Positions 2,644-32,785 of a stretch of 53,562 bases of DNA are shown piece after piece (within the stretch, counting starts at the first letter, position 1; each line of letters begins with the position of its first letter). The position numbers and the translations under genes are program-made. The notes under the pieces were generated by a model. It was not told the DNA's origin. It did not search any database and worked only from the letters and a program-made list of their open reading frames with translations. The stretch covers positions 1-53,562 of IMG/VR virus record IMGVR_UViG_3300010413_000045, one strand, 5' to 3'. The stretch comes from a virus. Taxonomy: Duplodnaviria; Caudoviricetes.

Positions 2644-3036
2644 TTAAATAAAATATACTACTATTCCGGTTACAGTAGCTACGACAGCACACATCCCGGC
2701 AACTTTACCCCATGTCAATTCTGATTCGGCCCTTTTGATTCCTCCGACGGTATCCCTTCCGGATCGATCTCCTTCATCTCTCGATTGTCTTTGCTCAAGA
2801 GCGCCAACACGATCACGCATTGATCTTTCTTTTTCATACAGATCCGCTACGTCATTACGAAGCCTGGTGACATCATCTTTAACCGGAGAGACGTGTAGGT
2901 TGATATATTCTTTGATATCTAATGTCGTATTGGCGAGCATGGAGCTCATCTGCGATATGACTTCTTTATTGCCTTCTTGTATGGCAAGCAATGTTTCAGC
3001 ATCCACGTTGCTAATCCCCTTTTTTGGCACTGACAT
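2644..3036 (-). CDS. Lysis-cassette coiled-coil protein with C-terminal TM (holin/antiholin-like)
   Basis: Coiled coil plus C-terminal hydrophobic helix; precedes endolysin. Confidence 0.6.
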   Translation of the reverse strand: MSVPKKGISNVDAETLLAIQEGNKEVISQMSSMLANTTLDIKEYINLHVSPVKDDVTRLRNDVADLYEKERSMRDRVGALEQRQSRDEGDRSGRDTVGGIKRAESELTWGKVAGMCAVVATVTGIVVYFI

Positions 3037-3064
3037 ATCGTTCGTTCCCCTTGAGTCTCAATAT

Positions 3065-3106
3065 AAAAAATCCGGGCAGAACGTGGTAAAAACGAAGCTG
3101 CCCGGA
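3065..3106 (-). terminator. Intrinsic terminator upstream of lysis genes
   Basis: TCCGGGCAG-18nt-CTGCCCGGA then TTTTTT on minus strand. Confidence 0.7.
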
Positions 3107-3119
3107 CGGGATCGAACAA

Positions 3120-3842
3120 CTATAATTTATCACGTCTATTCGCCACCTTTTCGCATTCTGTCTTTTCCGACGTAATTATGCCGTTTTCAAACAACCAGAA
3201 CATAAACTGATCCTGGGTTTTGAATCCATGTTTATTTCTTTCATCCCTCACTTTCCTCGGTAGATTCTGATCAGTTACATTTAATTCTAGTTTATCATTG
3301 ATTTCTGGCCAATCAAAGCCCTTTGATCTCAGTTGTAGGATATCGACGACATCGGAGTTAACCATTGAGGGGTATGGCGTTTTATGTTCAGTATACTTTT
3401 TATCCGCGTTTTTCGACGGATGTATGTAATGGTGGTATAGGACAAAAAGAAATGAGGATCCAGCTAAATATGTCGCTGCCTGAGCGGGATTTTGTCCAGT
3501 AAATGTAAACCTTATAATAAAAAGAAGTAACGATACCCCGGAATATAAATAGATTCTTTTTGGGTTTTTTGACAAATAAATTGAATATGTGAGCAATGAT
3601 GTTCCGGCCAAGCTCGAATCCCCATTAAACCAAAATCCAACCATCGACAAGATCAATAAAATCAAAGATATTTTTTCATTTTTTAATTCTTTCTTTACAA
3701 ACCAAAACAGGAATATTATAGGAATGAAAATTATCGAGTAAAATAAATAATACTCGAAATCTTCACCCCTATATAATCCATTAACGAGATTCCCTACCGA
3801 AATTATTGATAGAGGTATACTGAGTTTTTGTCCGATCCTCAT
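3120..3842 (-). CDS. Multi-pass membrane protein with C-terminal LuxR-like HTH
   Basis: ~5-6 TM segments then DVVDILQLRSKGFDWPEINDKL...RNKHGFKTQDQFMFWLFENGII. Confidence 0.7.
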   Translation of the reverse strand: MRIGQKLSIPLSIISVGNLVNGLYRGEDFEYYLFYSIIFIPIIFLFWFVKKELKNEKISLILLILSMVGFWFNGDSSLAGTSLLTYSIYLSKNPKRIYLYSGVSLLLFIIRFTFTGQNPAQAATYLAGSSFLFVLYHHYIHPSKNADKKYTEHKTPYPSMVNSDVVDILQLRSKGFDWPEINDKLELNVTDQNLPRKVRDERNKHGFKTQDQFMFWLFENGIITSEKTECEKVANRRDKL

Positions 3843-5120: not shown

Positions 5121-5516
5121 TTAGGTGTTATCCCCGAGAGGATCACCCTGGAACTCGACGGTTACAACACCATCGGCTGAATCTTCAAAATCAGGATCGT
5201 TTGTCACACTCATAAAAGTACCGACAATCGGACCGATACCGGACTGAACGCCCTTAACGACATTCGCCCCGATATTCTGTTTCCATCCTCTGATCAAAGA
5301 CTCTGTATCCGGCGTGTTGTACATATCGAAGGAAATCATGGAGACTTTTGTCTCTGCATCCTCTGTATGAATTGTTCGACCTCCACCGCCCCCTGTAGAG
5401 GCAAATCGGACAGTCGTCTCACCGGCTCCTATTTTATGTTTGGATGAGTTGGGAACAATCTCTATAGGGACATCATTCACCGACCATCCTGGTGTGCTTC
5501 GTGCAATATTAGACAT
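5121..5516 (-). CDS. Tail tube protein
   Basis: 131 aa directly after sheath; C-terminal ADGVVTVEFQG. Confidence 0.85.
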   Translation of the reverse strand: MSNIARSTPGWSVNDVPIEIVPNSSKHKIGAGETTVRFASTGGGGGRTIHTEDAETKVSMISFDMYNTPDTESLIRGWKQNIGANVVKGVQSGIGPIVGTFMSVTNDPDFEDSADGVVTVEFQGDPLGDNT

Positions 5517-5519
5517 TTA

Positions 5520-7094
5520 TCAGCCTCCCACAGAAAACGCCAGCTGGAATGTGACGTTGCCTTCTCTAAATTGCGTTACAATCGGGAGATCCCCGCTTGA
5601 TGTTACAGAACCTGTCGCCAGATCGAGCGTTACCGTCAGGTTGGAAAAGAAATATTTTTCAGCCTCACCGCCTGCCTGAGTAAGAGTGTAATCGGGACCG
5701 GCCAGAAGGTTGTAAATCTCGGCGTATTTCGCTTTCATTCCGTCCTGATTTTCAATCGCTCTTCCGGCAACCTTAACGCCGCTTGTCAACCTGAATTGTT
5801 TGTATGTGGCTTTCAGTGTCTTGAAGAAAATCTCCAAAGCAAGGAATCCCGTTCGGATATAGTTAAGATATTTGAAAGAGGTATTCGGCAGCCCCTGGGC
5901 GTCGAATTTATAGGTGCTGATAACCTCACCCATGATCGTAGTCGCGGCATTTTCATCCACACCGATAATGGTGTATCCATCGTCAGCCAGGTTCTGCTGC
6001 TCCTGCTCATCAAAAAGCAAATCGGGAGGAGTCGAAGAAGTCTGCGCAAGAGGGGTACTGTAGTATCCCAGTGAAGCCGTACCGCCGCCGCCTACCGTAT
6101 CGAGAGGCGCTGATGTTGCGACATACTGTCCTATAGGAACACCGTCAGTAAGCCTCAATCCTTCAATGGCCGCAAACTCGACAGTCATCCAGTCATCAGG
6201 CTCAATAATCGCCCGCGCTCCGTCTACAACCCTGTTACCCATAAAGAACAGGTTCGGGGAGTTGAGAGGCGTTACGCCGTTAACCTTACTTGATATATTC
6301 GCCTCGGTATCGGAATAACCGATGTATGCGACTCCATGGAGAAAGGCGTTATTGATAACGTTTCTACCCTCAAGAAAGCTCTTGACTTCTGTGAAATTAT
6401 CCTGCCACGGCCACGCTATAACATGAAATCTCGTTGAAGACACATTGTCGAAAATCCCTGTAACAGTCGGGTCGGTAGCGCCAGAAGCGAACTGTGAGCG
6501 GTCTTCTTTGGTGTTTCCGTTAACTGTGATACCAGCAGGCACGTTGGTGTGCTTAACCGTATATTTATTTCCGAGCGTACCGGAATCTGTCGCTGTCAGA
6601 GTAACGGTTCCAGAAAGGTTGTCAACCGAAGTCGCGGGGAATGTTGAAGCGAGAGCGTCAAGCCCGGCTTTTACTTTGGTAGCAACATCCGTTCCGGTAT
6701 CGCCTGTCTCGATGGAAACATTGAAAGAATACTGATATTTACTGATCGCCTCGACGGTCATCACTCTGTCTTCGTTCGCGGCTCCGGCGTATACAATCGC
6801 ATTGGAAGCGGCTGTTCCGGCAACTGGATCGAGAGCTATAACCCAAATCGTGAATCGGGATTTACAGATACTTCTTGCTTTGACGATCTGATGAGTCAGA
6901 TAAGACTTGCTCCCGAAAAGGCTTTTTACTTCGGCGTCGGTCATAGACTCGACATCTTGGTAAGTTGCCCCCGAAGTGGCTCCCCCGTCAGATCCGATCT
7001 GACCTGTGATCATCATCCGAAAAGGATCGGGACCGATCAGGCCAGCGGCAGCGAGGAGCTGCATAAATAAACGTGGTACTGAGGTAACACCCAT
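5520..7094 (-). CDS. Tail sheath protein (Mu gpL-like)
   Basis: 524 aa; ITGQ, LFGSKSYL, VTLTAxxxGxLGN, GATDP motifs. Confidence 0.9.
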   Translation of the reverse strand: MGVTSVPRLFMQLLAAAGLIGPDPFRMMITGQIGSDGGATSGATYQDVESMTDAEVKSLFGSKSYLTHQIVKARSICKSRFTIWVIALDPVAGTAASNAIVYAGAANEDRVMTVEAISKYQYSFNVSIETGDTGTDVATKVKAGLDALASTFPATSVDNLSGTVTLTATDSGTLGNKYTVKHTNVPAGITVNGNTKEDRSQFASGATDPTVTGIFDNVSSTRFHVIAWPWQDNFTEVKSFLEGRNVINNAFLHGVAYIGYSDTEANISSKVNGVTPLNSPNLFFMGNRVVDGARAIIEPDDWMTVEFAAIEGLRLTDGVPIGQYVATSAPLDTVGGGGTASLGYYSTPLAQTSSTPPDLLFDEQEQQNLADDGYTIIGVDENAATTIMGEVISTYKFDAQGLPNTSFKYLNYIRTGFLALEIFFKTLKATYKQFRLTSGVKVAGRAIENQDGMKAKYAEIYNLLAGPDYTLTQAGGEAEKYFFSNLTVTLDLATGSVTSSGDLPIVTQFREGNVTFQLAFSVGG

Positions 7095-7303
7095 CAGTTA
7101 TCCCCCTTGTTTTCAGCGGAAAAATCCGGCTGCATTTTATTTTTGGCGTCGTCTTTCGCCTTTTTGGATTTGGAGGATTCAGGAGCCATTTTCTCAAGGC
7201 AGCCGCCCTCCCTCAGTTTTCTGCGAACTTCACGGGACTCTTCGAGGATTTCTCCTACAGTGTGTTTGCCCCATGCTTTCGTGACTTTGTATTTATCTGC
7301 CAT
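7094..7303 (-). CDS. Small basic pre-sheath protein
   Basis: AAGGAG RBS; position typical of Mu-like tails. Confidence 0.65.
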   Translation of the reverse strand: MADKYKVTKAWGKHTVGEILEESREVRRKLREGGCLEKMAPESSKSKKAKDDAKNKMQPDFSAENKGDN

Positions 7304-7330
7304 TTTTAATGACTCCTTATGGTTAATTCG

Positions 7331-7359
7331 ATTATACACCTATAAAAATCACGTTTCAA
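7331..7359 (-). promoter_or_regulatory. Sigma70-type promoter for sheath/tube
   Basis: TTGAAA-N17-TATAAT. Confidence 0.7.
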
Positions 7360-7362
7360 GTG

Positions 7363-8460
7363 CTATGCGTCTTCATCCAAGTCCTCACTTGATCCGGCCT
7401 GAATCTCGTTAAAGACAATACCTGTGTCACGATAGGCTCTGGACTCAATAAATGTTGTCAGGAACTCCTGCTCTGTTGTCACTTCGAAATTGTATTCAAA
7501 ATCATACACGTGGGAATAATAGGCTTTATCATACCGACCGGCATCATGGCCTATAAGTGACGTGAGGTATTCAGTATTCCCGAAATCGTCAAAGGAAATA
7601 CCAGAGGCAACGGAGAGCATAAGCTGGTATATTTCATCATATGACAACTTGACAGCTAAAGCCGCCGCCGTTTCATTCGCCGTAGGGTAAAATACCACTA
7701 TTGAAAAAGTATTGATATTCAGCGGTCTGTCGGTCTGTCCGGCGACATTTAATTGATTCGCATCATTTTTCAGCGTCCTGGATTTTGATGTAACTGAGCC
7801 TCCCATAATTACATACATCCATAATTCATCTTTGGAGGCTACGGGCGTGTAAAGGGAAACGGCGCGATCAGCATCAACCGCTACGGCTATACGGAAATCT
7901 TTAGACCGGATATACCCCGGAGGGACAGTGCCCGGTGTTAATTCAGCAATTCCGATAAGATCGATTTCATAGGTATCCTGATCAATTACTCGGGTAATAT
8001 TCTTTAACCCATTGATCCCGATTTCTCTGATTTCCCGTAAAACTTCATTGCCATTCAATACAGGCTGTGAGGTTCCCGATATTTCAAAAGTTTTTCTATC
8101 TGGAACAGACAACAAAGGGAACTCACCATTAAATTGTGAATCGGTGAATCCTTCAAGTGTTATAGTCTCAATATTTATGTAATCCTCAGTCAGATCGTGA
8201 GGCAGAGAAGTTGTGAAGCGTATCGTATCATCAGCCGAATTATATACCGCCGCCGTGATAGGATTATCGACTCGGCCACGAGACAAGACAACCGGATCAC
8301 CGGCAGATAGTCCGTGAAGAGTATCGGTAATTCTCAAAACCTGTGGATCCCCATCAACAATGACAGCCGTTATATCAAGGTTCGTTGAGAATCGGCTCGA
8401 CAGCACAGGAACGTACTTCTGTAAATGCGTTAAAATATCATAGGGAGAATAAAAGCTCAT
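7363..8460 (-). CDS. Tail terminator/neck protein with inserted beta-domains
   Basis: Position before sheath; HGLSAGDPVVL and FNGEF...TFEI inserts. Confidence 0.65.
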   Translation of the reverse strand: MSFYSPYDILTHLQKYVPVLSSRFSTNLDITAVIVDGDPQVLRITDTLHGLSAGDPVVLSRGRVDNPITAAVYNSADDTIRFTTSLPHDLTEDYINIETITLEGFTDSQFNGEFPLLSVPDRKTFEISGTSQPVLNGNEVLREIREIGINGLKNITRVIDQDTYEIDLIGIAELTPGTVPPGYIRSKDFRIAVAVDADRAVSLYTPVASKDELWMYVIMGGSVTSKSRTLKNDANQLNVAGQTDRPLNINTFSIVVFYPTANETAAALAVKLSYDEIYQLMLSVASGISFDDFGNTEYLTSLIGHDAGRYDKAYYSHVYDFEYNFEVTTEQEFLTTFIESRAYRDTGIVFNEIQAGSSEDLDEDA

Positions 8461-17737: not shown

Positions 17738-19282
17738 TTAGACAGCTGCCCATGAAATCCAGTCGGGGGTGACTTCGGCGCGGCAGATCACATAAGCGTC
17801 CGCAAGGTTTGGTGATTTTGTCCCTTTCGGCTTTTTATCTATCATGAGTTTTCCGGATTTACTGGTCGTGTATTGAGGCTGTGATAATTCAAGTAAAAGT
17901 TTTTCCATCTTCTGGCTTGTTTGCTCACATATGGAGATCAATTCACCGGCTTCATAATCTTTACCGTTCAGAAATCGGTAGGTGTTCAACATTTCATGGC
18001 GGACAGACCACCAAGCTTGAGCTTTGGCGTTTTCAAAGAAATCTTTATTGTTCGTTTCGGCGTAATCCTGATCAGCAGGACGGACAACAGCACCGCCAGA
18101 ATTCCACGGTACAATACGCATTTTTCTGACAGGGTGATTTTCCGGTAAATCTCCGCCCTCTGATGGCATTCTCAAAATCTCTTTTAATCGGACAGCAACA
18201 GCAGCACCAACACCAATCGGGTCATAACGAAACTCTTTACAGCCCATCTCGTGAGCTTTCCAGAAATATTTATCCGTAGCGTCTCCAGGATCTCCCTCTC
18301 CTGATTCATCAGCATAGATAAACTGATTCCCGTCAATAACACAGAATCCATGAGTGTCCCCGCCCTCGTTTGCCGGGTCAAGTGCCGCTATTCTGGCGCC
18401 GTTGATGATATTATCATTCCGTTTAATCGACGATACCCATTCAGGAGGACAGCAGACAGATTCAAGAGAAGCGGCAGCGTTACGCTCAACTTCCTGCATG
18501 AAGATATGGAGCGTTCCTTCTGCTTCGGCTTTGGCTCGTTCAGCGTCGTACCACTCCTGATTGTACATAGGGATTTCCCACCAGTCGAATACGTAGACCG
18601 GATTAACCCCGCTTGTCGTTTTCCTGTAAAAAAGTGTACTAGTCCCGTGATGAGTTGATCCCCAGATCTTACAATCGGCGTTCCGTGATACGGCAGCTTC
18701 AATAGAATCAGCTCGGGGATAAAAAGCGCACTCATCTAGGAAATAAATTGAAGAACGGCCGCCACGCCCTGGAGAGTCCCCGGACTTACCGACGATAATA
18801 GAGCCATTGCGATGATTTTTAACCTGCATCAGCTTATCATCAACGCCCTCAGTGAATAATTTCGGGAGGTGAGCGCAGATAAAAATACATTTTTCAAGTA
18901 ATGTGTCGATATTTCCTTTCTCGTGGCATTCGTCAGCTTTGTACGTGTACATGGAGATCGTGACAGATTCGTGAAACAGGAACAGGAACACAGAAAAAGC
19001 CGCATTCATCCAAGACATTCCAACTCCACGGCATTTATCTACTACACCATCTTCCCGATTGGTATACCGATCCCATAGCCACCGGATATACTCTTCCTGT
19101 TTATCGAAAAGCTCGAAAGGGATAACACGGTCATCAGTCCGGCGCGGGTCCATCGTAAAGCACCAGCGATTGATAAAATCGATAGCCGCTTCTGCCGTAG
19201 GAATATGGTAGGCTTCGTAATATTTTTGTATTTCAGATGGCGAATTGATTAAGTGGGCGCGTTCTGACCAGGGGTGTTTCAT
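17738..19282 (-). CDS. terL: Terminase large subunit
   Basis: DKCRGVGMSW Walker A variant, GRGGR, FLDECAF, LDPANEGGD, SPNLADA. Confidence 0.92.
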   Translation of the reverse strand: MKHPWSERAHLINSPSEIQKYYEAYHIPTAEAAIDFINRWCFTMDPRRTDDRVIPFELFDKQEEYIRWLWDRYTNREDGVVDKCRGVGMSWMNAAFSVFLFLFHESVTISMYTYKADECHEKGNIDTLLEKCIFICAHLPKLFTEGVDDKLMQVKNHRNGSIIVGKSGDSPGRGGRSSIYFLDECAFYPRADSIEAAVSRNADCKIWGSTHHGTSTLFYRKTTSGVNPVYVFDWWEIPMYNQEWYDAERAKAEAEGTLHIFMQEVERNAAASLESVCCPPEWVSSIKRNDNIINGARIAALDPANEGGDTHGFCVIDGNQFIYADESGEGDPGDATDKYFWKAHEMGCKEFRYDPIGVGAAVAVRLKEILRMPSEGGDLPENHPVRKMRIVPWNSGGAVVRPADQDYAETNNKDFFENAKAQAWWSVRHEMLNTYRFLNGKDYEAGELISICEQTSQKMEKLLLELSQPQYTTSKSGKLMIDKKPKGTKSPNLADAYVICRAEVTPDWISWAAV

Positions 19283-20373
19283 TTTATCCCTTTAAAAATA
19301 TGACAAATAACGTCTACCGTCCATCCGTCACCGAGGCAAGAATAAATCTGGTTATCTGAAATATCAGCACCTTCAAAAAAATCATCAGGCACTGTTTGAA
19401 GCCTACAGCATTCTATTGGTGTTAACTTCCTTACTCTCATTAAGTCTAGATCGTAAGCTATTGATTGTCTGTCTACCGTATTAAGAGTGTACGACTTGTC
19501 CGGGTCAACCTTCATCCCCATTCCGTTTTGATTTTTGTTTATGAATTGGTCAGAGATTAGATAATATGCCTTGTTGCCAGACTCAACGAGCGTTGCAGCT
19601 TTTCCCTCTATCCCGTATACACGGTTAGTGCTTTGATCTTTTTCGTTTAAATTGAACAGCTTTCCTGATATAAAAGTCCCATTCCATGACTCACTATATC
19701 TTTCCTGCAAAGCCCTGGCCTTTTCTGGGTTTAAATTACAAAACTTTTCATTCTCAAGAATACGCTTTTTTACATATTCCCATGCTTTATCTTTCAGGTA
19801 GTATTTTTCATCAACTTCACTTTCGGGCTGTAAAACATCTTTCAGTAAAATACCTTTATCTTCTGGTTGCTGTATTTCATTTCCAAAAAGATCATCTCCC
19901 AATCCGGGTATGTTTGTCCAATAAATCCGCTTTCTATTCTGAGCAGAAACGAGAGCTGAATTGATTTTTACAGGAAGAACACCAAGACGCCTGGAAATCT
20001 CAATCTCACACTGTTTATCCATTGGTACATTTTCAAGCAAAAATAAAACATCAGGATTCTTTTCCTGCAATTCTTCTAATATTCGGAAATAATCCATTAT
20101 CAATCCTGAACGAGGATCGTCAAAATTAAGACGGTCTCCCATTATAGAAAAACCTTGGCAAGGACTGCCACCTATAAGCATATCAATATCGTAATCATGT
20201 CCGCAAACTTCTGTTACAGATCCGATGTGGATATTGTCTGGATAATAATTTTTACTGGCTTTTATTTTTGATTCGGATATTTCCGAAGCATAGTATTTAT
20301 CAACTTTGATTCCTGATCTCTCAAGAGCTAATCTACCACACGACATACCGTCAAATAAGCTTAATACTTTCAT
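19279..20373 (-). CDS. DNA cytosine-C5 methyltransferase
   Basis: LSLFDG, GGSPCQG, LLENV, QNRKRIYW, LTPIECCRLQ, GDGW. Confidence 0.95.
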   Translation of the reverse strand: MKVLSLFDGMSCGRLALERSGIKVDKYYASEISESKIKASKNYYPDNIHIGSVTEVCGHDYDIDMLIGGSPCQGFSIMGDRLNFDDPRSGLIMDYFRILEELQEKNPDVLFLLENVPMDKQCEIEISRRLGVLPVKINSALVSAQNRKRIYWTNIPGLGDDLFGNEIQQPEDKGILLKDVLQPESEVDEKYYLKDKAWEYVKKRILENEKFCNLNPEKARALQERYSESWNGTFISGKLFNLNEKDQSTNRVYGIEGKAATLVESGNKAYYLISDQFINKNQNGMGMKVDPDKSYTLNTVDRQSIAYDLDLMRVRKLTPIECCRLQTVPDDFFEGADISDNQIYSCLGDGWTVDVICHIFKGIK

Positions 20374-20455
20374 AGACAAGTCCTTAGTCCTGTAAAATAA
20401 TCTGGATTGGGAGAGAAGGACTAAAACTCTCCCCAGGGTGGCCGCCCTGCCAGAT
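20374..20455 (-). ncRNA. Structured leader RNA, copy 1 (three-way junction plus anti-RBS loop)
   Basis: ATCTGG/CCAGAT; CAGGG/CCCTG; GGGAGAG/CTCTCCC; loop TAGTCCT vs AGGACTA-AGGACTT; promoter CTGACA-N17-TATTAT at 20461-20489. Confidence 0.8.
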
Positions 20456-20469
20456 ATTGAATAATATCA

Positions 20470-21120
20470 TCAATCGCCGTTATTGTCAGCACCGGAAATC
20501 TTATCAAAGAAAAGTTTCTTCGCTTCTTCGGGAGGGAGATCGGTGTAGTTGATAGTTTTATTTTCGGTTTCCAGTTTGCCCTTAACGGTAATTTCCTGCT
20601 TATCAGTCCACAGTCCACCATGACGGCCCAAAAGCTCAAGGGCGGACTTTTTATCATGAAACTTGATTTCAATAGCTCCCTTTGCGTCCTGCTTAATGCT
20701 GGCAATTCCCCGCCGCTGTTCCGTAGTGAGATTTTTTGTATCGGCAATTTCGACAATCTGCCGAGTTTTGGTTACGGTATCGATTATGTTCCCGTCAATG
20801 TCACGGATGTTCTCTTCATACTCTTCAGTTCTGACATTCACAATATCGGTAATATCGCTTGTGGCTATCGGTATAAGCTCGGAAAGTACTTTATGCCGTA
20901 TTTGAGACTTCATTGCGCCGAGAGACTTGTCCACACATTCGTCTAAATATCTGACCACCTTGTCATTTTTAAGCATACGAGAGGCGGTTGTAGCTGCTGA
21001 TTTCGGACTGTATCCGGCAGCTATGGCGGCATTCGTTTGGTTCCAATCCAGCTCTATGAGTTTATGGCAAAAAGCCTGTTGTTTCGGTGTCAGTGATTCC
21101 ATATTGCTTTTCTTTGGCAT
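20470..21120 (-). CDS. terS: Terminase small subunit
   Basis: LTPKQQAFC...NQTNAAIAAGYSPKSA...; KKSALELLGRH. Confidence 0.92.
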   Translation of the reverse strand: MPKKSNMESLTPKQQAFCHKLIELDWNQTNAAIAAGYSPKSAATTASRMLKNDKVVRYLDECVDKSLGAMKSQIRHKVLSELIPIATSDITDIVNVRTEEYEENIRDIDGNIIDTVTKTRQIVEIADTKNLTTEQRRGIASIKQDAKGAIEIKFHDKKSALELLGRHGGLWTDKQEITVKGKLETENKTINYTDLPPEEAKKLFFDKISGADNNGD

Positions 21121-21428
21121 ATTCAATCCTCCCTATCAGGATAACGATTTGCATGGTTAATCGTCAAGGTTCTCCCCCTTATCGTACAACTCCTGATTTT
21201 TACAGACAATACAAGCTCCGGTCAAAAAGTGTTTGCATTTGTAGCAGTCTTTATCGCGCATAATCCCTCACTATCAAAATGGAGCCAATTTATCAACAGG
21301 CTCTAATCTGTAATCGTGTGATTTATCTTCAATCACGCCATAGACAACACATTTACCGGATCTTTTATGCCGGCAACCAGCTGATGATCTACATTGGTCT
21401 TTAAATCCGTTGTAGTGTGTGCATTTGC

Positions 21429-29107: not shown

Positions 29108-30673
29108 ATGCCACTCCGTCCACACCAACAACGCTTTTCAGAAATATGCCAACAAATTAACGACGGTGCCAAAATTACAGATGTTATAGCATTCGTCGTT
29201 CCAGGTGGAGGAAAATCAACTTATTGCCCGATAGCCTCACAGCTTATTCATGATGATTATACAAAAATATTATGGGTATGCCCGCGAGAATCTCTTATGA
29301 AGCAAGCCGAACAGGGATTCAGAGGAGACGGGATAGTCGATGTCGGAAACCATGATATAAGGCTGGCGAATAATTCGGGAGACGATCCTTTCCGAGGATG
29401 TTCCGGCGCTGTCACATCCTATCAGGGAATTGTCGCACGCCCTGAATATTGGATAAAAATATCTAAGAAATATAAAATTATCCTTTTTCTCGACGAGTAC
29501 GATTCTTTGATCGAAGAAGGGGCATGGTCCGAACCAATAAAGCAGATTTACGGAAACGCTTTTTTTAGGGTATGCGCTACAGGTACAATCGACCGATCTG
29601 ACGAACTGCCTTTACTGTTTACTCCGTACAACGATGACGGATCAATCGATTTCAGAGATACGGAATCAAGAAAGTGGATCATCTACGGCAAAGAGGAATC
29701 AATCCGTGATGGTTCAACAGTACATTTTACAGCCACTCTGATATCAGGATCTGGGAAATATGTCGATCTTGACGGTATAACGAGAAGTTTTAAAAAGTTT
29801 ACCGGGAAAGGTGATGAACTGATTACAGCTTTCCGCACCGACTTTGCCTATCAAATGTTTTTGCTATGCCTGAAAGACTGGAACGAATACAGAAAAGATC
29901 ACCCATGGGCGAAAATAATCATACTGGCAAACAATATTGACATAGCTGAAAAATATAACAGATGGTTCAAAGAAAACGGTTATGATTTTGACATAGCCAC
30001 ATCGGGAGATGAAAAGCTATCAGCTGAAACTATCAGACGTTTTAAAATGCCTAACGGTTATTTCGGAGCGTTAGACGGGATGGTTGGCATCGGCAAGGTA
30101 TATAAGGGCCTTGATATAAAACCGGCCACATTCCTTGTTTTTCTCACTCGCATCCGTGGTAAATCCTGGGTTGATCAGGCGGTCGGAAGGGTTCAGCGGG
30201 CATTCAAAGGAAAGACTGAGGCTTTTGTTTATGCTCCAGATGATCCAAAAATGAGGAAAGTATTACAGGAAATATCAGATTGTGTTATCCGTAACGCCAC
30301 AGCCGACCCACCAGAGAAAAAAGGAACCTACACATCAGATGAAGAAGCCGGACCGGCACGAACTATCCAGGCTTTATACTCAAAAGCAAATATAGACATT
30401 CCTCAACCCGACCTACCGCTAATTACCGAACATCATGAAACTCAGTCCGAGATCGAGAAGAGGCTTAGAGTAGAAATAAATCACACAATATCTAGGATAA
30501 TATCAAAAGAAGATCAAGGTAACATCAAAACAAAACAAAGAATTATATTTATGAGAATAAGACAAATTGTGAATAATGGAAGAGACGAAAATGGCAAACT
30601 TATTAAAAAATCATTTGATGAGATGTCTATAAAAGAGCTTAAAGCTGTTAAGTTATTTGTTGAAATGTTTTAA
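29108..30673 (+). CDS. Superfamily 2 helicase
   Basis: LRPHQ, PGGGKS, LDEYD, TGT, GLDI, QAVGRVQR. Confidence 0.88.
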   Translation: MPLRPHQQRFSEICQQINDGAKITDVIAFVVPGGGKSTYCPIASQLIHDDYTKILWVCPRESLMKQAEQGFRGDGIVDVGNHDIRLANNSGDDPFRGCSGAVTSYQGIVARPEYWIKISKKYKIILFLDEYDSLIEEGAWSEPIKQIYGNAFFRVCATGTIDRSDELPLLFTPYNDDGSIDFRDTESRKWIIYGKEESIRDGSTVHFTATLISGSGKYVDLDGITRSFKKFTGKGDELITAFRTDFAYQMFLLCLKDWNEYRKDHPWAKIIILANNIDIAEKYNRWFKENGYDFDIATSGDEKLSAETIRRFKMPNGYFGALDGMVGIGKVYKGLDIKPATFLVFLTRIRGKSWVDQAVGRVQRAFKGKTEAFVYAPDDPKMRKVLQEISDCVIRNATADPPEKKGTYTSDEEAGPARTIQALYSKANIDIPQPDLPLITEHHETQSEIEKRLRVEINHTISRIISKEDQGNIKTKQRIIFMRIRQIVNNGRDENGKLIKKSFDEMSIKELKAVKLFVEMF

Positions 30674-30688
30674 TAAAAAATATATAAT
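30660..30688 (+). promoter_or_regulatory. Promoter for leader RNA and HNH gene
   Basis: TTGAAA-N17-TATAAT, 6 nt before P1. Confidence 0.7.
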
Positions 30689-30694
30689 TTATAT

Positions 30695-30774
30695 ATCAGG
30701 CGGTAGGCATACCGGGGGGAGTTCAACACCTTCTCCCCCAAACCTGATTATTTTACAGGTGTTAGGTGTTGTCT
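30695..30774 (+). ncRNA. Structured leader RNA, copy 2
   Basis: ATCAGG/CCTGAT; CGGTA/TACCG; GGGGGAG/CTCCCCC; loop AACACCT vs AGGTGTT-AGGTGTT. Confidence 0.8.
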
Positions 30775-31551
30775 ATGTCAAATAAAATCTGTTCAGTTGA
30801 TGGTTGTTTTTCTAAAGTTTTATGCAAAGGTTTTTGTGTCAAACACTACCAGAGGAACAAAAGGCACGGAGATCCACTTTATTATGAATACAAATCAACA
30901 TGTTCTATTGATGGTTGTAATAATAAGCATGTTGCTTTTGGATATTGCATGAAACATTATTCAAGGTATAGAAATAATGGAGATGCTAAAATATCTTTAA
31001 TAAACAAAGACCATGATGAATTATGTTCTGTCAATGGATGCAGTAATAAGTATTTCTCTAAAGGTTTATGCAAGAAACATTATGAAAGGTTTAAAAAATA
31101 TGGAGATGTAAATTATACAAAGTTAGGAAGAGATCTTGAATGTCATGGAATGACTAGCTCTCCAGAATATGTATCGTGGAGAGAAATGAAGAATAGATGT
31201 ATAAACAAGAAGTCAAATAGGTATTATAGATATGGTGGCAGAGGGATAAAGGTTTGTGATAGGTGGTTAGAGTCGTTTGCAAATTTCTATGAAGATATGG
31301 GTCCAAAGCCTTTTCCTAAAGCTCAAATAGACAGGATAGACAATGATGGAAACTACGAACCTAGGAATTGCAGATGGATAAGCTTGCTTGAAAATATGCG
31401 TCATACATCTAGAGTAAAGTTGTCTATTGAGAAAGCTAGGAGAATAAGAAGTCTATGTAATAGCGTTTCTACTAAGGATTTAGCTAAAATGTATGGAGTT
31501 TCTGAATCTTTGATATCAAAAGTAATAAAAAACGAAATATGGATAGAGTGA
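30775..31551 (+). CDS. HNH homing-type endonuclease with three CSxxGC-CxxHY repeats and C-terminal HTH
   Basis: YGGRGIKVCDRW, IDRIDNDGNYEPRNCRW. Confidence 0.9.
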   Translation: MSNKICSVDGCFSKVLCKGFCVKHYQRNKRHGDPLYYEYKSTCSIDGCNNKHVAFGYCMKHYSRYRNNGDAKISLINKDHDELCSVNGCSNKYFSKGLCKKHYERFKKYGDVNYTKLGRDLECHGMTSSPEYVSWREMKNRCINKKSNRYYRYGGRGIKVCDRWLESFANFYEDMGPKPFPKAQIDRIDNDGNYEPRNCRWISLLENMRHTSRVKLSIEKARRIRSLCNSVSTKDLAKMYGVSESLISKVIKNEIWIE

Positions 31552-31577: not shown

Positions 31578-31606
31578 TTGCATTGTGTGGTATGGTGTGA
31601 TAGTAT
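31578..31606 (+). promoter_or_regulatory. Promoter of tRNA-like RNA / recombination operon
   Basis: TTGCAT-N17-TAGTAT, closely similar to GNAT promoter. Confidence 0.7.
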
Positions 31607-31614
31607 TGATATTA

Positions 31615-31765
31615 GGCAAGGTGGCGAAATTGGTAGACGCCGTTGACACCTTTAACGAAAATGCTGGGGATATGAGCCATCCGCCTGAACCGAGTGGTGT
31701 AGGTCACATAAAGTGGGTAATGCTGATCCTTAACCGGCTTGTAGGTTCGAGTCCTGCCCTTGCCA
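31615..31765 (+). ncRNA. tRNA-Leu-like RNA (151 nt) with degenerate anticodon arm and giant variable arm
   Basis: GGCAAGG/CCTTGCC-A; GCG-AAATTGGTAGA-CGC; GTAGG-TTCGAGT-CCTGC. Confidence 0.8.
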
Positions 31766-31794
31766 TCACTATATTTTTATTAAGCGAGGTATTT

Positions 31795-32217
31795 ATGACC
31801 AAAGAAACTCTTATCGAACTGAGAGACGCTCAGAAGGAAGCCGATAAACTGGCTGAAACTCTCAAAGAAAAACGGGACGCATTCGCAAAGACCATTGAAT
31901 CGGAATCGGCGAATTATGCGGAACTCAACAATCTGATTTCTTCCCTGAAGCTGGAACTCACCGCCGAAGCTCTTTCCGACTACGAAGCGAATCCGGCAAG
32001 CAAAACTCTGAATGGTGGGATTAAAATCCGGTCAAGCCAGTCCGTCGAGTATGATGATTCTGACGCTCTGAAATGGGCAAAAGAAAAGGATATGTTCCTG
32101 ACTCTGGATAAAAAAGCCTTTGAAAAAGCGGCTGCCGGTATGGATCTGGATTTCGTGAAAACCGTCACGGTCAATAAAATAGCTTTCCCGACTGCTGGCG
32201 TTGTGGTGGAGGATTAA
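31795..32217 (+). CDS. Gam/Gp157-like protein (tentative)
   Basis: Coiled coil then KTLNGGIKIR...ALKWAKE...LDKKAF; true start after the ncRNA. Confidence 0.55.
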   Translation: MTKETLIELRDAQKEADKLAETLKEKRDAFAKTIESESANYAELNNLISSLKLELTAEALSDYEANPASKTLNGGIKIRSSQSVEYDDSDALKWAKEKDMFLTLDKKAFEKAAAGMDLDFVKTVTVNKIAFPTAGVVVED

Positions 32218-32218
32218 G

Positions 32219-32785
32219 ATGGTTGCGGAAATCGGTGATTCTGGAAAGGTGTGTAATGGTTGCGGAATATATTTACCATTAAAAAACTTTTCAAAGCACA
32301 AATACAGTAGAGATGGTTACAAATCTACATGTAAAAAATGCATTGCTGCGAAAAGAGCAGAAACTGCTGATTGCGAGAATGCAAAAAGAAGATCCGATTA
32401 CGCATCAGATCCAGAAAAGTATAAAAAAAGATCAAAGGATTATGCAGAAAGAAACCAAGAAAAGGTCAGGTCAAGAAAGAGACGGTATTCCGAGCTGAAT
32501 AGGGAAAAGATTTTAAGAAAGCATAGAGAGTACAATAAATCTCACCCTGAAAACAAAAGAAAACGGTACACAGCATATCCTGAAAAATCAAAAGCAAGGT
32601 CAATTCTTCAACACGCAATAAGGAGAGGAGAAATAAAAAGATTGCCATGTTGTGTGTGTGGAAACATCAAATCTGAAGGGCATCATGATGACTATTCAAA
32701 GCCTCTTGAAGTTGTTTGGCTTTGTAGGAAACATCATTCTGAAAGACATATTGAAATAAGAGACAAGGAGAATAAATATGAGTAA
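32219..32785 (+). CDS. HNH-like Zn-finger protein
   Basis: CNGC...CKKC; PCCVCG...EGHHDDYSKPLEVVWLCRKHH. Confidence 0.8.
   Translation: MVAEIGDSGKVCNGCGIYLPLKNFSKHKYSRDGYKSTCKKCIAAKRAETADCENAKRRSDYASDPEKYKKRSKDYAERNQEKVRSRKRRYSELNREKILRKHREYNKSHPENKRKRYTAYPEKSKARSILQHAIRRGEIKRLPCCVCGNIKSEGHHDDYSKPLEVVWLCRKHHSERHIEIRDKENKYE

Follow-up and report, generated by a model that had tools for sequence, protein, structure and literature searches.

The viral record IMGVR_UViG_3300010413_000045 (Duplodnaviria; Caudoviricetes) is a complete genome, 53,562 bp long and bounded by direct terminal repeats, and this whole stretch is called the window below. It carries two copies of a structured leader RNA, each ending at the start codon of a protein-coding gene (Table 1). 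Copy 2, on the plus strand, precedes a gene annotated as an HNH-like endonuclease, and copy 1, on the minus strand, precedes a C5 cytosine DNA methyltransferase gene located between terS and terL. The genome has no close relative among deposited phages, and in deposited phage records a 4-kb region and the leader alike gave short chance matches only, none of them real.

Both copies form a three-way junction of helices P1, P2 and P3, in which the 11-nucleotide (nt) loop of P3, termed L3, is complementary to the ribosome-binding region. A covariance model built from copy 1 alone, used for the first searches of the window and its relatives, detects copy 2 (74 bits, E 3e-16) as its only further match in the genome, in agreement with the original prediction that one architecture occurs at two sites. 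The two copies follow the same plan with different letters in P1 (one pair), P2 (three), P3 (one) and the loop code, and these differences are compensatory in P1, P2, P3 and the loop/tail pairing.

In copy 2, the loop CAACACCT can form eight contiguous Watson-Crick pairs with AGGTGTTG, and three nucleotides then precede ATG 30775. This is, base for base, the complementarity that had been proposed before this start codon. The proposed target nevertheless captured half of the arrangement: the heptamer complementary to the P3 loop is present as two tandem units, of which the downstream one (R2) is the site originally described and the upstream one (R1) had been overlooked. In copy 2 the units read AGGTGTT and AGGTGTT(G), followed by TCT and ATG; in copy 1 the loop UUAGUCCU is accompanied by the heptamers AGGACUA and AGGACUU. 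Tandem AGG heptamers occur in this genome only at the two leader sites. The two loop codes are orthogonal, as had been suggested, with about three cross pairs when counted by eye from the printed loops and tails. Other occurrences of the heptamers in the window do not lie at gene starts, and targets in trans were therefore rejected.

Table 1. Leader elements, promoters and genes at the two sites, in window coordinates
Feature	Position	Strand	Remarks
terL	17738-19282
C5 cytosine DNA methyltransferase gene	19279-20373	-	PF00145, E 1e-36; between terS and terL
Copy 1 leader	20455-20371	-	ends at ATG of methylase gene
Copy 1 P1	20455-20450/20405-20400	-	minimum-energy fold gives junction; copy 1 model
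Copy 1 P2	20449-20434	-
Copy 1 P3	20433-20427/20415-20409	-
Copy 1 L3	20426-20416	-
Copy 1 linker	20399-20392	-
Copy 1 R1	20391-20385	-
Copy 1 R2	20384-20377	-
Copy 1 ATG	20373-20371	-
Copy 1 sigma-70-type promoter	20461-20489	-	CTGACA, 17-nt spacer, TG-n-TATTAT; 10/12, TG before -10
Promoter-like site, antisense to copy 1	20373-20401	+	TAGACA-17-AATAAT, 10/12
terS	20470-21126
Copy 2 sigma-70-type promoter	30660-30688	+	-35 TTGAAA 30660-30665, 17-nt spacer, -10 TATAAT 30683-30688; 11/12
Copy 2 leader	30695-30777	+	ends at ATG 30775 of HNH-like gene
Copy 2 junction	30695-30748	+	P1 30695-30700/30743-30748; covariation
Copy 2 P2 hairpin	30701-30714	+	covariation
Copy 2 P3	30715-30721/30733-30739	+	covariation
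Copy 2 L3	30722-30732	+	30724-30731 is the anti-Shine-Dalgarno-like code
Copy 2 J3/1	30740-30742	+	three A's closing the junction
Copy 2 linker	30749-30756	+	A/U-rich, 8 nt, ending UAC (kept in 15/15)
Copy 2 R1	30757-30763	+	upstream heptamer, putative decoy; 7 pairs with L3
Copy 2 R2	30764-30771	+	heptamer (30764-30770) plus G, Shine-Dalgarno region; 8 pairs with L3; AGG to ATG 8 nt
Promoter-like site, antisense to copy 2	30747-30775	-	TAGACA-17-AATAAT, 10/12
HNH-like endonuclease gene	30775-31551	+	258 amino acids; phrog_3377, E 2e-41
tRNA-like gene	31615-31765	+	32.9 bits against Rfam tRNA threshold of 29; 82-nt insert at anticodon arm
Endonuclease VII-like gene	32201-32785	+	phrog_2340

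The leader family and its promoters

Relatives of the leader were sought by two routes. In one, the model was run over loci coding for kin of the HNH-like protein. In the other, IMG/VR, metagenome contigs and a set of prokaryote genomes, one for each species, were scanned with degenerate DNA patterns, and all matches were then checked by the model. In the pattern used on the metagenomes, which held no coding sequence, the CCU/AGG core and the heptamer spacing of 7 nt were fixed; the leaders of contigs L009 and L011 came via the HNH-homologue route and not via this pattern. At least 15 distinct leaders fit one model at 55-98 bits, 13 of them beyond the window in viral and metagenome contigs. 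The search is limited by the pattern, and the counts below refer to these 15 (two in the window and 13 others).

The viral contigs with a leader are L009 (whose leader is identical in L010), L011 and L003, the last being a fragment nearly identical with the copy 1 locus. The metagenome contigs contributed 11 confident leaders among the 119 matches listed (55-78 bits). When the model was run over 80 HNH-homologue loci, and in another run over 77 of these plus 10 others, it found the leader in L009, L010 and L011 alone. The pattern scan of bacterial and archaeal genomes, one per species, yielded no confident leader, as all 116 matches failed the model, the best reaching 17.8 bits against at least 55 for true members. 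The IMG/VR pattern matches L004, L005, L097, L098, L336 and L337 were rejected as chance, the first two on direct reading and the other four in the absence of a model match; weak model matches in L104 (20.8 bits, no downstream gene), L177, L188 and L213 were excluded from every count. Rfam 15, run over the whole window at gathering thresholds, reported tRNA-Thr only, and with permissive filters both leaders reached at best E 1.9-2.2 at 11-15 bits, far under the thresholds. No description of such a leader was found in the open-access literature searched.

The family is held together by covariation. Across the 15-row alignment, standard pairs fill 98.3% of the cells in P1-P3 and the pseudoknot when R1 is the partner of the loop and 97.7% when R2 is, as opposed to 83.0% in shuffled controls. 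Changes on both sides occur in 13 of the 24 pairs, the observed values were reached by none of 500 shuffles, and sliding the partner lowers pairing to 44-58%. The pseudoknot lies outside the model yet covaries, pair 37/73 being GC in nine leaders, AU in four and CG in one. The loop makes 6-10 contiguous pairs with each of the two heptamers in every leader; cognate combinations average 6.9 pairs at R1 and 7.0 at R2, compared with 4.9 for a loop and tail of different code. When wobble-compatible codes are pooled, the family uses four. Because all 15 leaders keep the loop/heptamer pairing with covariation, chance is excluded. Since R1 and R2 both track the loop code, both pairings appear to have been selected. 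On these alignments the leader is a well-supported candidate RNA family of 15 members that is absent from Rfam, which bears out the earlier view of a real, conserved structured RNA, here with covariation in four helices, whose loop pairs with the ribosome-binding region.

Individual elements are kept to different degrees. Nested minimum-energy folds regain the junction in 14 leaders, all but copy 2, in which an alternative fold competes; the loop is left unpaired with P 0.71-1.0. The linker measures 7-8 nt throughout and UAC precedes R1 in all 15 leaders. R2 stands 7-9 nt from the start codon, with R1 a further 7-8 nt upstream. Two features first taken for functional constraints do not extend across the family: the supposedly invariant linker TATTTTACAGG is reduced to UACAGG, the part kept in 15/15, and the GTCTATG end is particular to the two window copies. 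The P2 loop is GGCA or GGCG in nine leaders, UAGCU-like in four and CGGCCA in two. Within the junction, P1 joins P2 and P2 joins P3 with no base left unpaired, and the sole single strand, J3/1, is a variable stretch of 3-5 A/U. Members also differ by insertions or deletions of 1-2 nt in P1, the P2 loop, L3 and the linker. In L102, L131 and others, codons 3-5 (Ile-Cys-Lys) contain CUGUAAA, the complement of the conserved linker UUUACAG, and nested folds pair the two; L009, L168 and the methylase copy lack this complementarity. Two further candidates were rejected. An intrinsic terminator would need a U-rich linker directly after P1, which is found in 3/15 leaders only, and copy 2 has no terminator-like site. 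The UACAGGA stretch resembles a GGA-centred CsrA-type site, and two of the codes (AGGU...) lack GGA.

A promoter-like pair of -35 and -10 hexamers, defined by a spacer of 16-18 nt and a few bases before the RNA start, matches the consensus at no fewer than 9 of 12 positions in all 15 leaders and at 10 or more in 13, a score of 10/12 being reached at 0.4% of control positions. The -10 element ends 4-6 nt upstream of P1 in every case. The original prediction had overlooked this promoter. From this placement it follows that the RNA most likely begins at P1 and that the promoter is most likely part of the module. The likeness of the two window copies extends from about the -10 element to the ATG and ends there, which suggests that the module, and not the gene, was duplicated or exchanged. 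In neither window copy was a sense-strand sigma-70-like site found on the stretch from the loop to R2, phage-specific late promoters not having been scanned for. Both window leaders have, in addition, a promoter-like antisense site pointing into the leader; it was rejected as a family feature, the underlying bases not being kept in the other 13 leaders.

Leader-linked genes and their neighbourhoods

Tabulation of the genes downstream of the model matches ties the leaders to gene starts. One HNH-like protein family follows 14 of the 15, and the C5 methylase follows copy 1. The same family follows all 11 leaders found with the non-coding DNA pattern, one of these genes being cut by the contig end after 29 residues. 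The gene that the original prediction called an HNH endonuclease does match PHROG families so labelled; what that prediction missed is that this is essentially the leader of one HNH-like family, to which the methylase copy is the exception. A search for relatives of the methylase found the near-identical fragment only.

The HNH-like proteins have one to three N-terminal Cys-rich repeats, a conserved core and a C-terminal helix-turn-helix. The 258-residue protein of the window has three such repeats, an HNH-like core and a C-terminal helix-turn-helix with structural matches to that fold. Residues 118-214 of its predicted model align weakly with the HNH enzyme PacI (Z 5.7, root-mean-square deviation 4.0, 82 residues). 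A Foldseek search against the PDB returned nothing at E 0.001 or better, with I-HmuI at E 0.56. The 58-kb phage L009 carries, at 2998-3534, a second gene of the HNH-like family that is very like the leader-linked gene of L108 and has no promoter of its own.

The comparison with related phages supports the idea that the leader accompanies inserted genes. Judged by terminase (67% and 72% identity), the nearest two relatives contain neither the leader nor its cargo. In relative L087, terS and terL are contiguous and overlap, and in relative G001 the helicase is followed by other genes with no HNH homologue. Relative L089 has a different HNH-AP2-like gene in the terS-terL gap, where the window has the methylase, and this junction looks like an insertion hot spot. 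Flanking genes vary among the 13 other leader loci; in L102, for example, the cassette is preceded by a member of a gene family that follows it in L168. Leader-linked genes thus appear to behave as mobile cassettes, homing itself aside, being present or absent at the same site and set in varied neighbourhoods.

Some neighbouring features deserve separate mention. The gene in the L089 gap (5255-6004) is leaderless and encodes an HNH/AP2-like protein of 249 amino acids that has no relation to either the methylase or the leader-linked family. The terL match of L089 (6001-7409) is in two pieces, 6001-6411 and 6420-7409, with the first open reading frame (ORF) ending at 6432; a frameshift, an assembly error or an intervening element could account for this. 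In the window, the tRNA-like element expected after the HNH-like gene is present with its insert. Neither ARAGORN nor the whole-window Rfam run reported it. The mechanical ORF 31585-32217 shares its first third with this element, and the gene itself probably begins close to ATG 31796. The endonuclease VII-like gene has no counterpart between the homologues of its neighbours in G001 and may be a further inserted gene.

Pairing at the Shine-Dalgarno site and its possible effect

Shine-Dalgarno sites precede 28 of the 43 long ORFs of the phage against a background of 0.17, which indicates that its host uses such sites. The account that we consider reasonably probable is that of a portable promoter-plus-leader module that limits translation by a pseudoknot on the Shine-Dalgarno site and in which R1 is a decoy that competes for the loop. 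The module would comprise a host-type (sigma-70) promoter, a leader RNA of about 83 nt starting at or next to the transcription start, and the gene. The leader would fold into the three-way junction, and the loop of its third helix, which resembles an anti-Shine-Dalgarno sequence, would make a pseudoknot of 6-10 bp with either of the two adjacent, near-identical heptamers starting with AGG. R2 would be the ribosome-binding site, and loop pairing there would block initiation. R1 is presumably too far from the start to serve as such a site, and when paired it would act as a decoy that leaves R2 free. In the simplest version, the balance between the two would set the translation level of a strongly transcribed mobile HNH-like gene, as a constitutive down-tuning, and in the window phage a copy with a different loop code would have been placed before a DNA methylase. 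A trigger may also act on the pairing, such as a protein, a ligand, the time since synthesis or the ribosome itself. The predicted energies of the loop duplex span -7.6 to -13.1 kcal/mol at R2 and -8.6 to -11.2 kcal/mol at R1, and R2 pairs better than R1 in five leaders, equally in eight and worse in two.

Several points weigh against this account. A look-up of RNA sequencing runs turned up none that contains the region. The alignment behind the covariation figures was fitted to the P1-P3 of the model, which favours those helices, and in the 11 metagenome leaders the unbiased evidence consists of the four variable code positions and P1-P3 only. Pairing at R1 is about as stable as at R2 in 8/15 leaders, so that on balance translation might be affected mildly or even be raised. 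In L009, a close paralogue that starts 9 nt after the SSB gene has no leader, nor do the best-matching HNH homologues (L006-L008), and therefore the HNH-like gene does not need one. The word nuclease is itself an annotation, taken from the PHROG label, and not a result; D-R replaces the usual D-H of HNH enzymes in all 14 aligned proteins, and the Pfam and NCBIfam HNH models gave no match to the leader-linked protein.

A possible extension, put forward tentatively, is a bistable rheostat in which the loop toggles between decoy and true site, single changes in R1 or R2 set the translated share or its duration, and free code positions make the copies orthogonal. By predicted energy, the methylase copy favours the decoy (nine pairs at R1 against six at R2; -9.5 against -7.6 kcal/mol), and the HNH copy favours the true site (eight pairs at R2 against seven at R1; -11.1 against -8.6 kcal/mol). 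A methylase copy biased on and an HNH copy biased off would fit the order that a modification/nuclease pair needs, in what is a single case. If the rheostat exists, several modules could be tuned independently in one genome through four free code positions.

It is unlikely, in our estimation, that the leader is instead a sensor, that is, a riboswitch or an operator for a host or phage factor or for the HNH-like protein, whose ligand would decide whether the loop rests on R1 (on) or R2 (off). Two nearly isoenergetic pairing sites do look like a switch in need of an input, UAC and the sequence of the P3 stem are conserved, and the P2 loop recurs in three types; autoregulation through a leader pseudoknot is also described for T4 gene 32 in the excerpted text of PMC3014915. 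The junction strands, however, are missing or variable A/U and offer no conserved pocket, and this lack of conserved unpaired bases argues against a small-molecule ligand. There was no Rfam riboswitch match even at E 10. The genes read downstream are the HNH-like protein and a methylase, and the methylase copy, with its own P2 and code, shares no protein with the HNH copies.

It seems quite improbable that the leader mainly aids expression, with a paired 5' end shielding the mRNA from 5'-end-dependent decay and a loop-R1 pseudoknot keeping R2 open beside the A/U-rich linker. 5'-terminal stems stabilise mRNAs, and P1 lies at the predicted +1, the linker is A/U-rich and fixed at 7-8 nt, and R1 is transcribed first and lies nearer the loop. 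This explanation nevertheless accounts neither for the covariation with the loop of R2 positions 4-7, dispensable for ribosome binding, nor for the fact that in 13 of the 15 leaders R2 is no worse a partner than R1.

A DNA operator for the helix-turn-helix domain, made of three heptamers (one inverted, two direct), or a coding N-terminal extension is very improbable: the protein does end in a helix-turn-helix, PMC3014915 has I-TevI as an autorepressor among its references, and the leader is open in frame with the gene in several contigs, but compensatory changes in P1, P2 and P3 would be meaningless for an operator or peptide, the 1-2 nt insertions and deletions would break a reading frame, neither window copy keeps the frame open, and the methylase copy has another code and no helix-turn-helix protein of its own. 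In-frame leaders, from starts within the -10 box, occur in L009, L102, L108, L131, L168, L175, L121, L205 and L185; this openness is read as a by-product of G/C-rich helices, not as coding, given the frame-shifting indels.

If the pseudoknot module acts as proposed, it would represent a compact, portable and sequence-programmable unit of translational control, about 115 bp with its promoter, that is carried by mobile phage genes. Its tandem decoy/Shine-Dalgarno design with free code positions would offer a simple natural example of tunable, orthogonal RNA regulators. Its promoter and ribosome-binding site belong to the type common in bacteria, and the module should therefore be testable in E. 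coli reporters.

Comparison with known regulatory RNAs

Pseudoknots that sequester the Shine-Dalgarno site are found in the SAM-II, SAM/SAH and preQ1 riboswitch classes. The leader resembles these in that its pseudoknot helix includes the Shine-Dalgarno sequence before the start codon. Unlike them, it has no Rfam match and no conserved unpaired junction bases, and its pairing code varies freely. We know of no counterpart of the tandem decoy site. HEARO, the omega RNA of IsrB, is an HNH-associated structured RNA on a mobile element, and the leader likewise lies 5' of an HNH-labelled gene that appears to be mobile. It differs in its length of 83 nt, in lacking an Rfam hit and in having its code paired internally rather than exposed as a free guide; the linked protein, unlike IsrB, is a small protein of Cys repeats, HNH-like core and helix-turn-helix.

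In T4, the gene 32 leader contains a pseudoknot that functions as an autogenous translational operator, 67 nt upstream, and nucleates protein binding (PMC3014915, excerpted text). It shares with the present leader the position of a pseudoknot in a phage 5' leader, followed by an A/U-rich stretch before the ribosome-binding site. As portrayed in that excerpt, the gene 32 pseudoknot does not pair with the Shine-Dalgarno sequence and is not tied to mobile genes, in contrast to the leader.

The occlusion of homing-endonuclease ribosome-binding sites by hairpins, to which the original prediction appealed, is established for T4-type phages; in the excerpted text of PMC3014915, such hairpins are shown for T4 I-TevI, I-TevII and I-TevIII and for Aeh1 mobE, and implied for T4 segB. 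In both systems, as far as that excerpt describes the T4 case, an RNA element in cis covers the ribosome-binding site of a mobile endonuclease gene placed between phage genes and is presumed to keep the enzyme low. The leaders share the pairing of a cis element with the Shine-Dalgarno/start region, here 6-10 bp in 15/15 as read from sequence. They depart from the simple hairpin with a later internal promoter, having a three-way junction, a loop-to-tail pseudoknot and two tandem pairing sites. For I-TevI the same source places relief in a promoter inside the hairpin, unlike the conserved promoter of the leader, which stands upstream of the whole structure, and there is no sequence relation between the two. 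If the proposed repression is correct, the T4 rule of translationally quiet homing-endonuclease genes would extend to uncultivated phages through a different RNA architecture. The leader thus appears, from its conserved pairing, to be a new architecture for a known principle, the T4-type occlusion of the ribosome-binding sites of homing-endonuclease genes.

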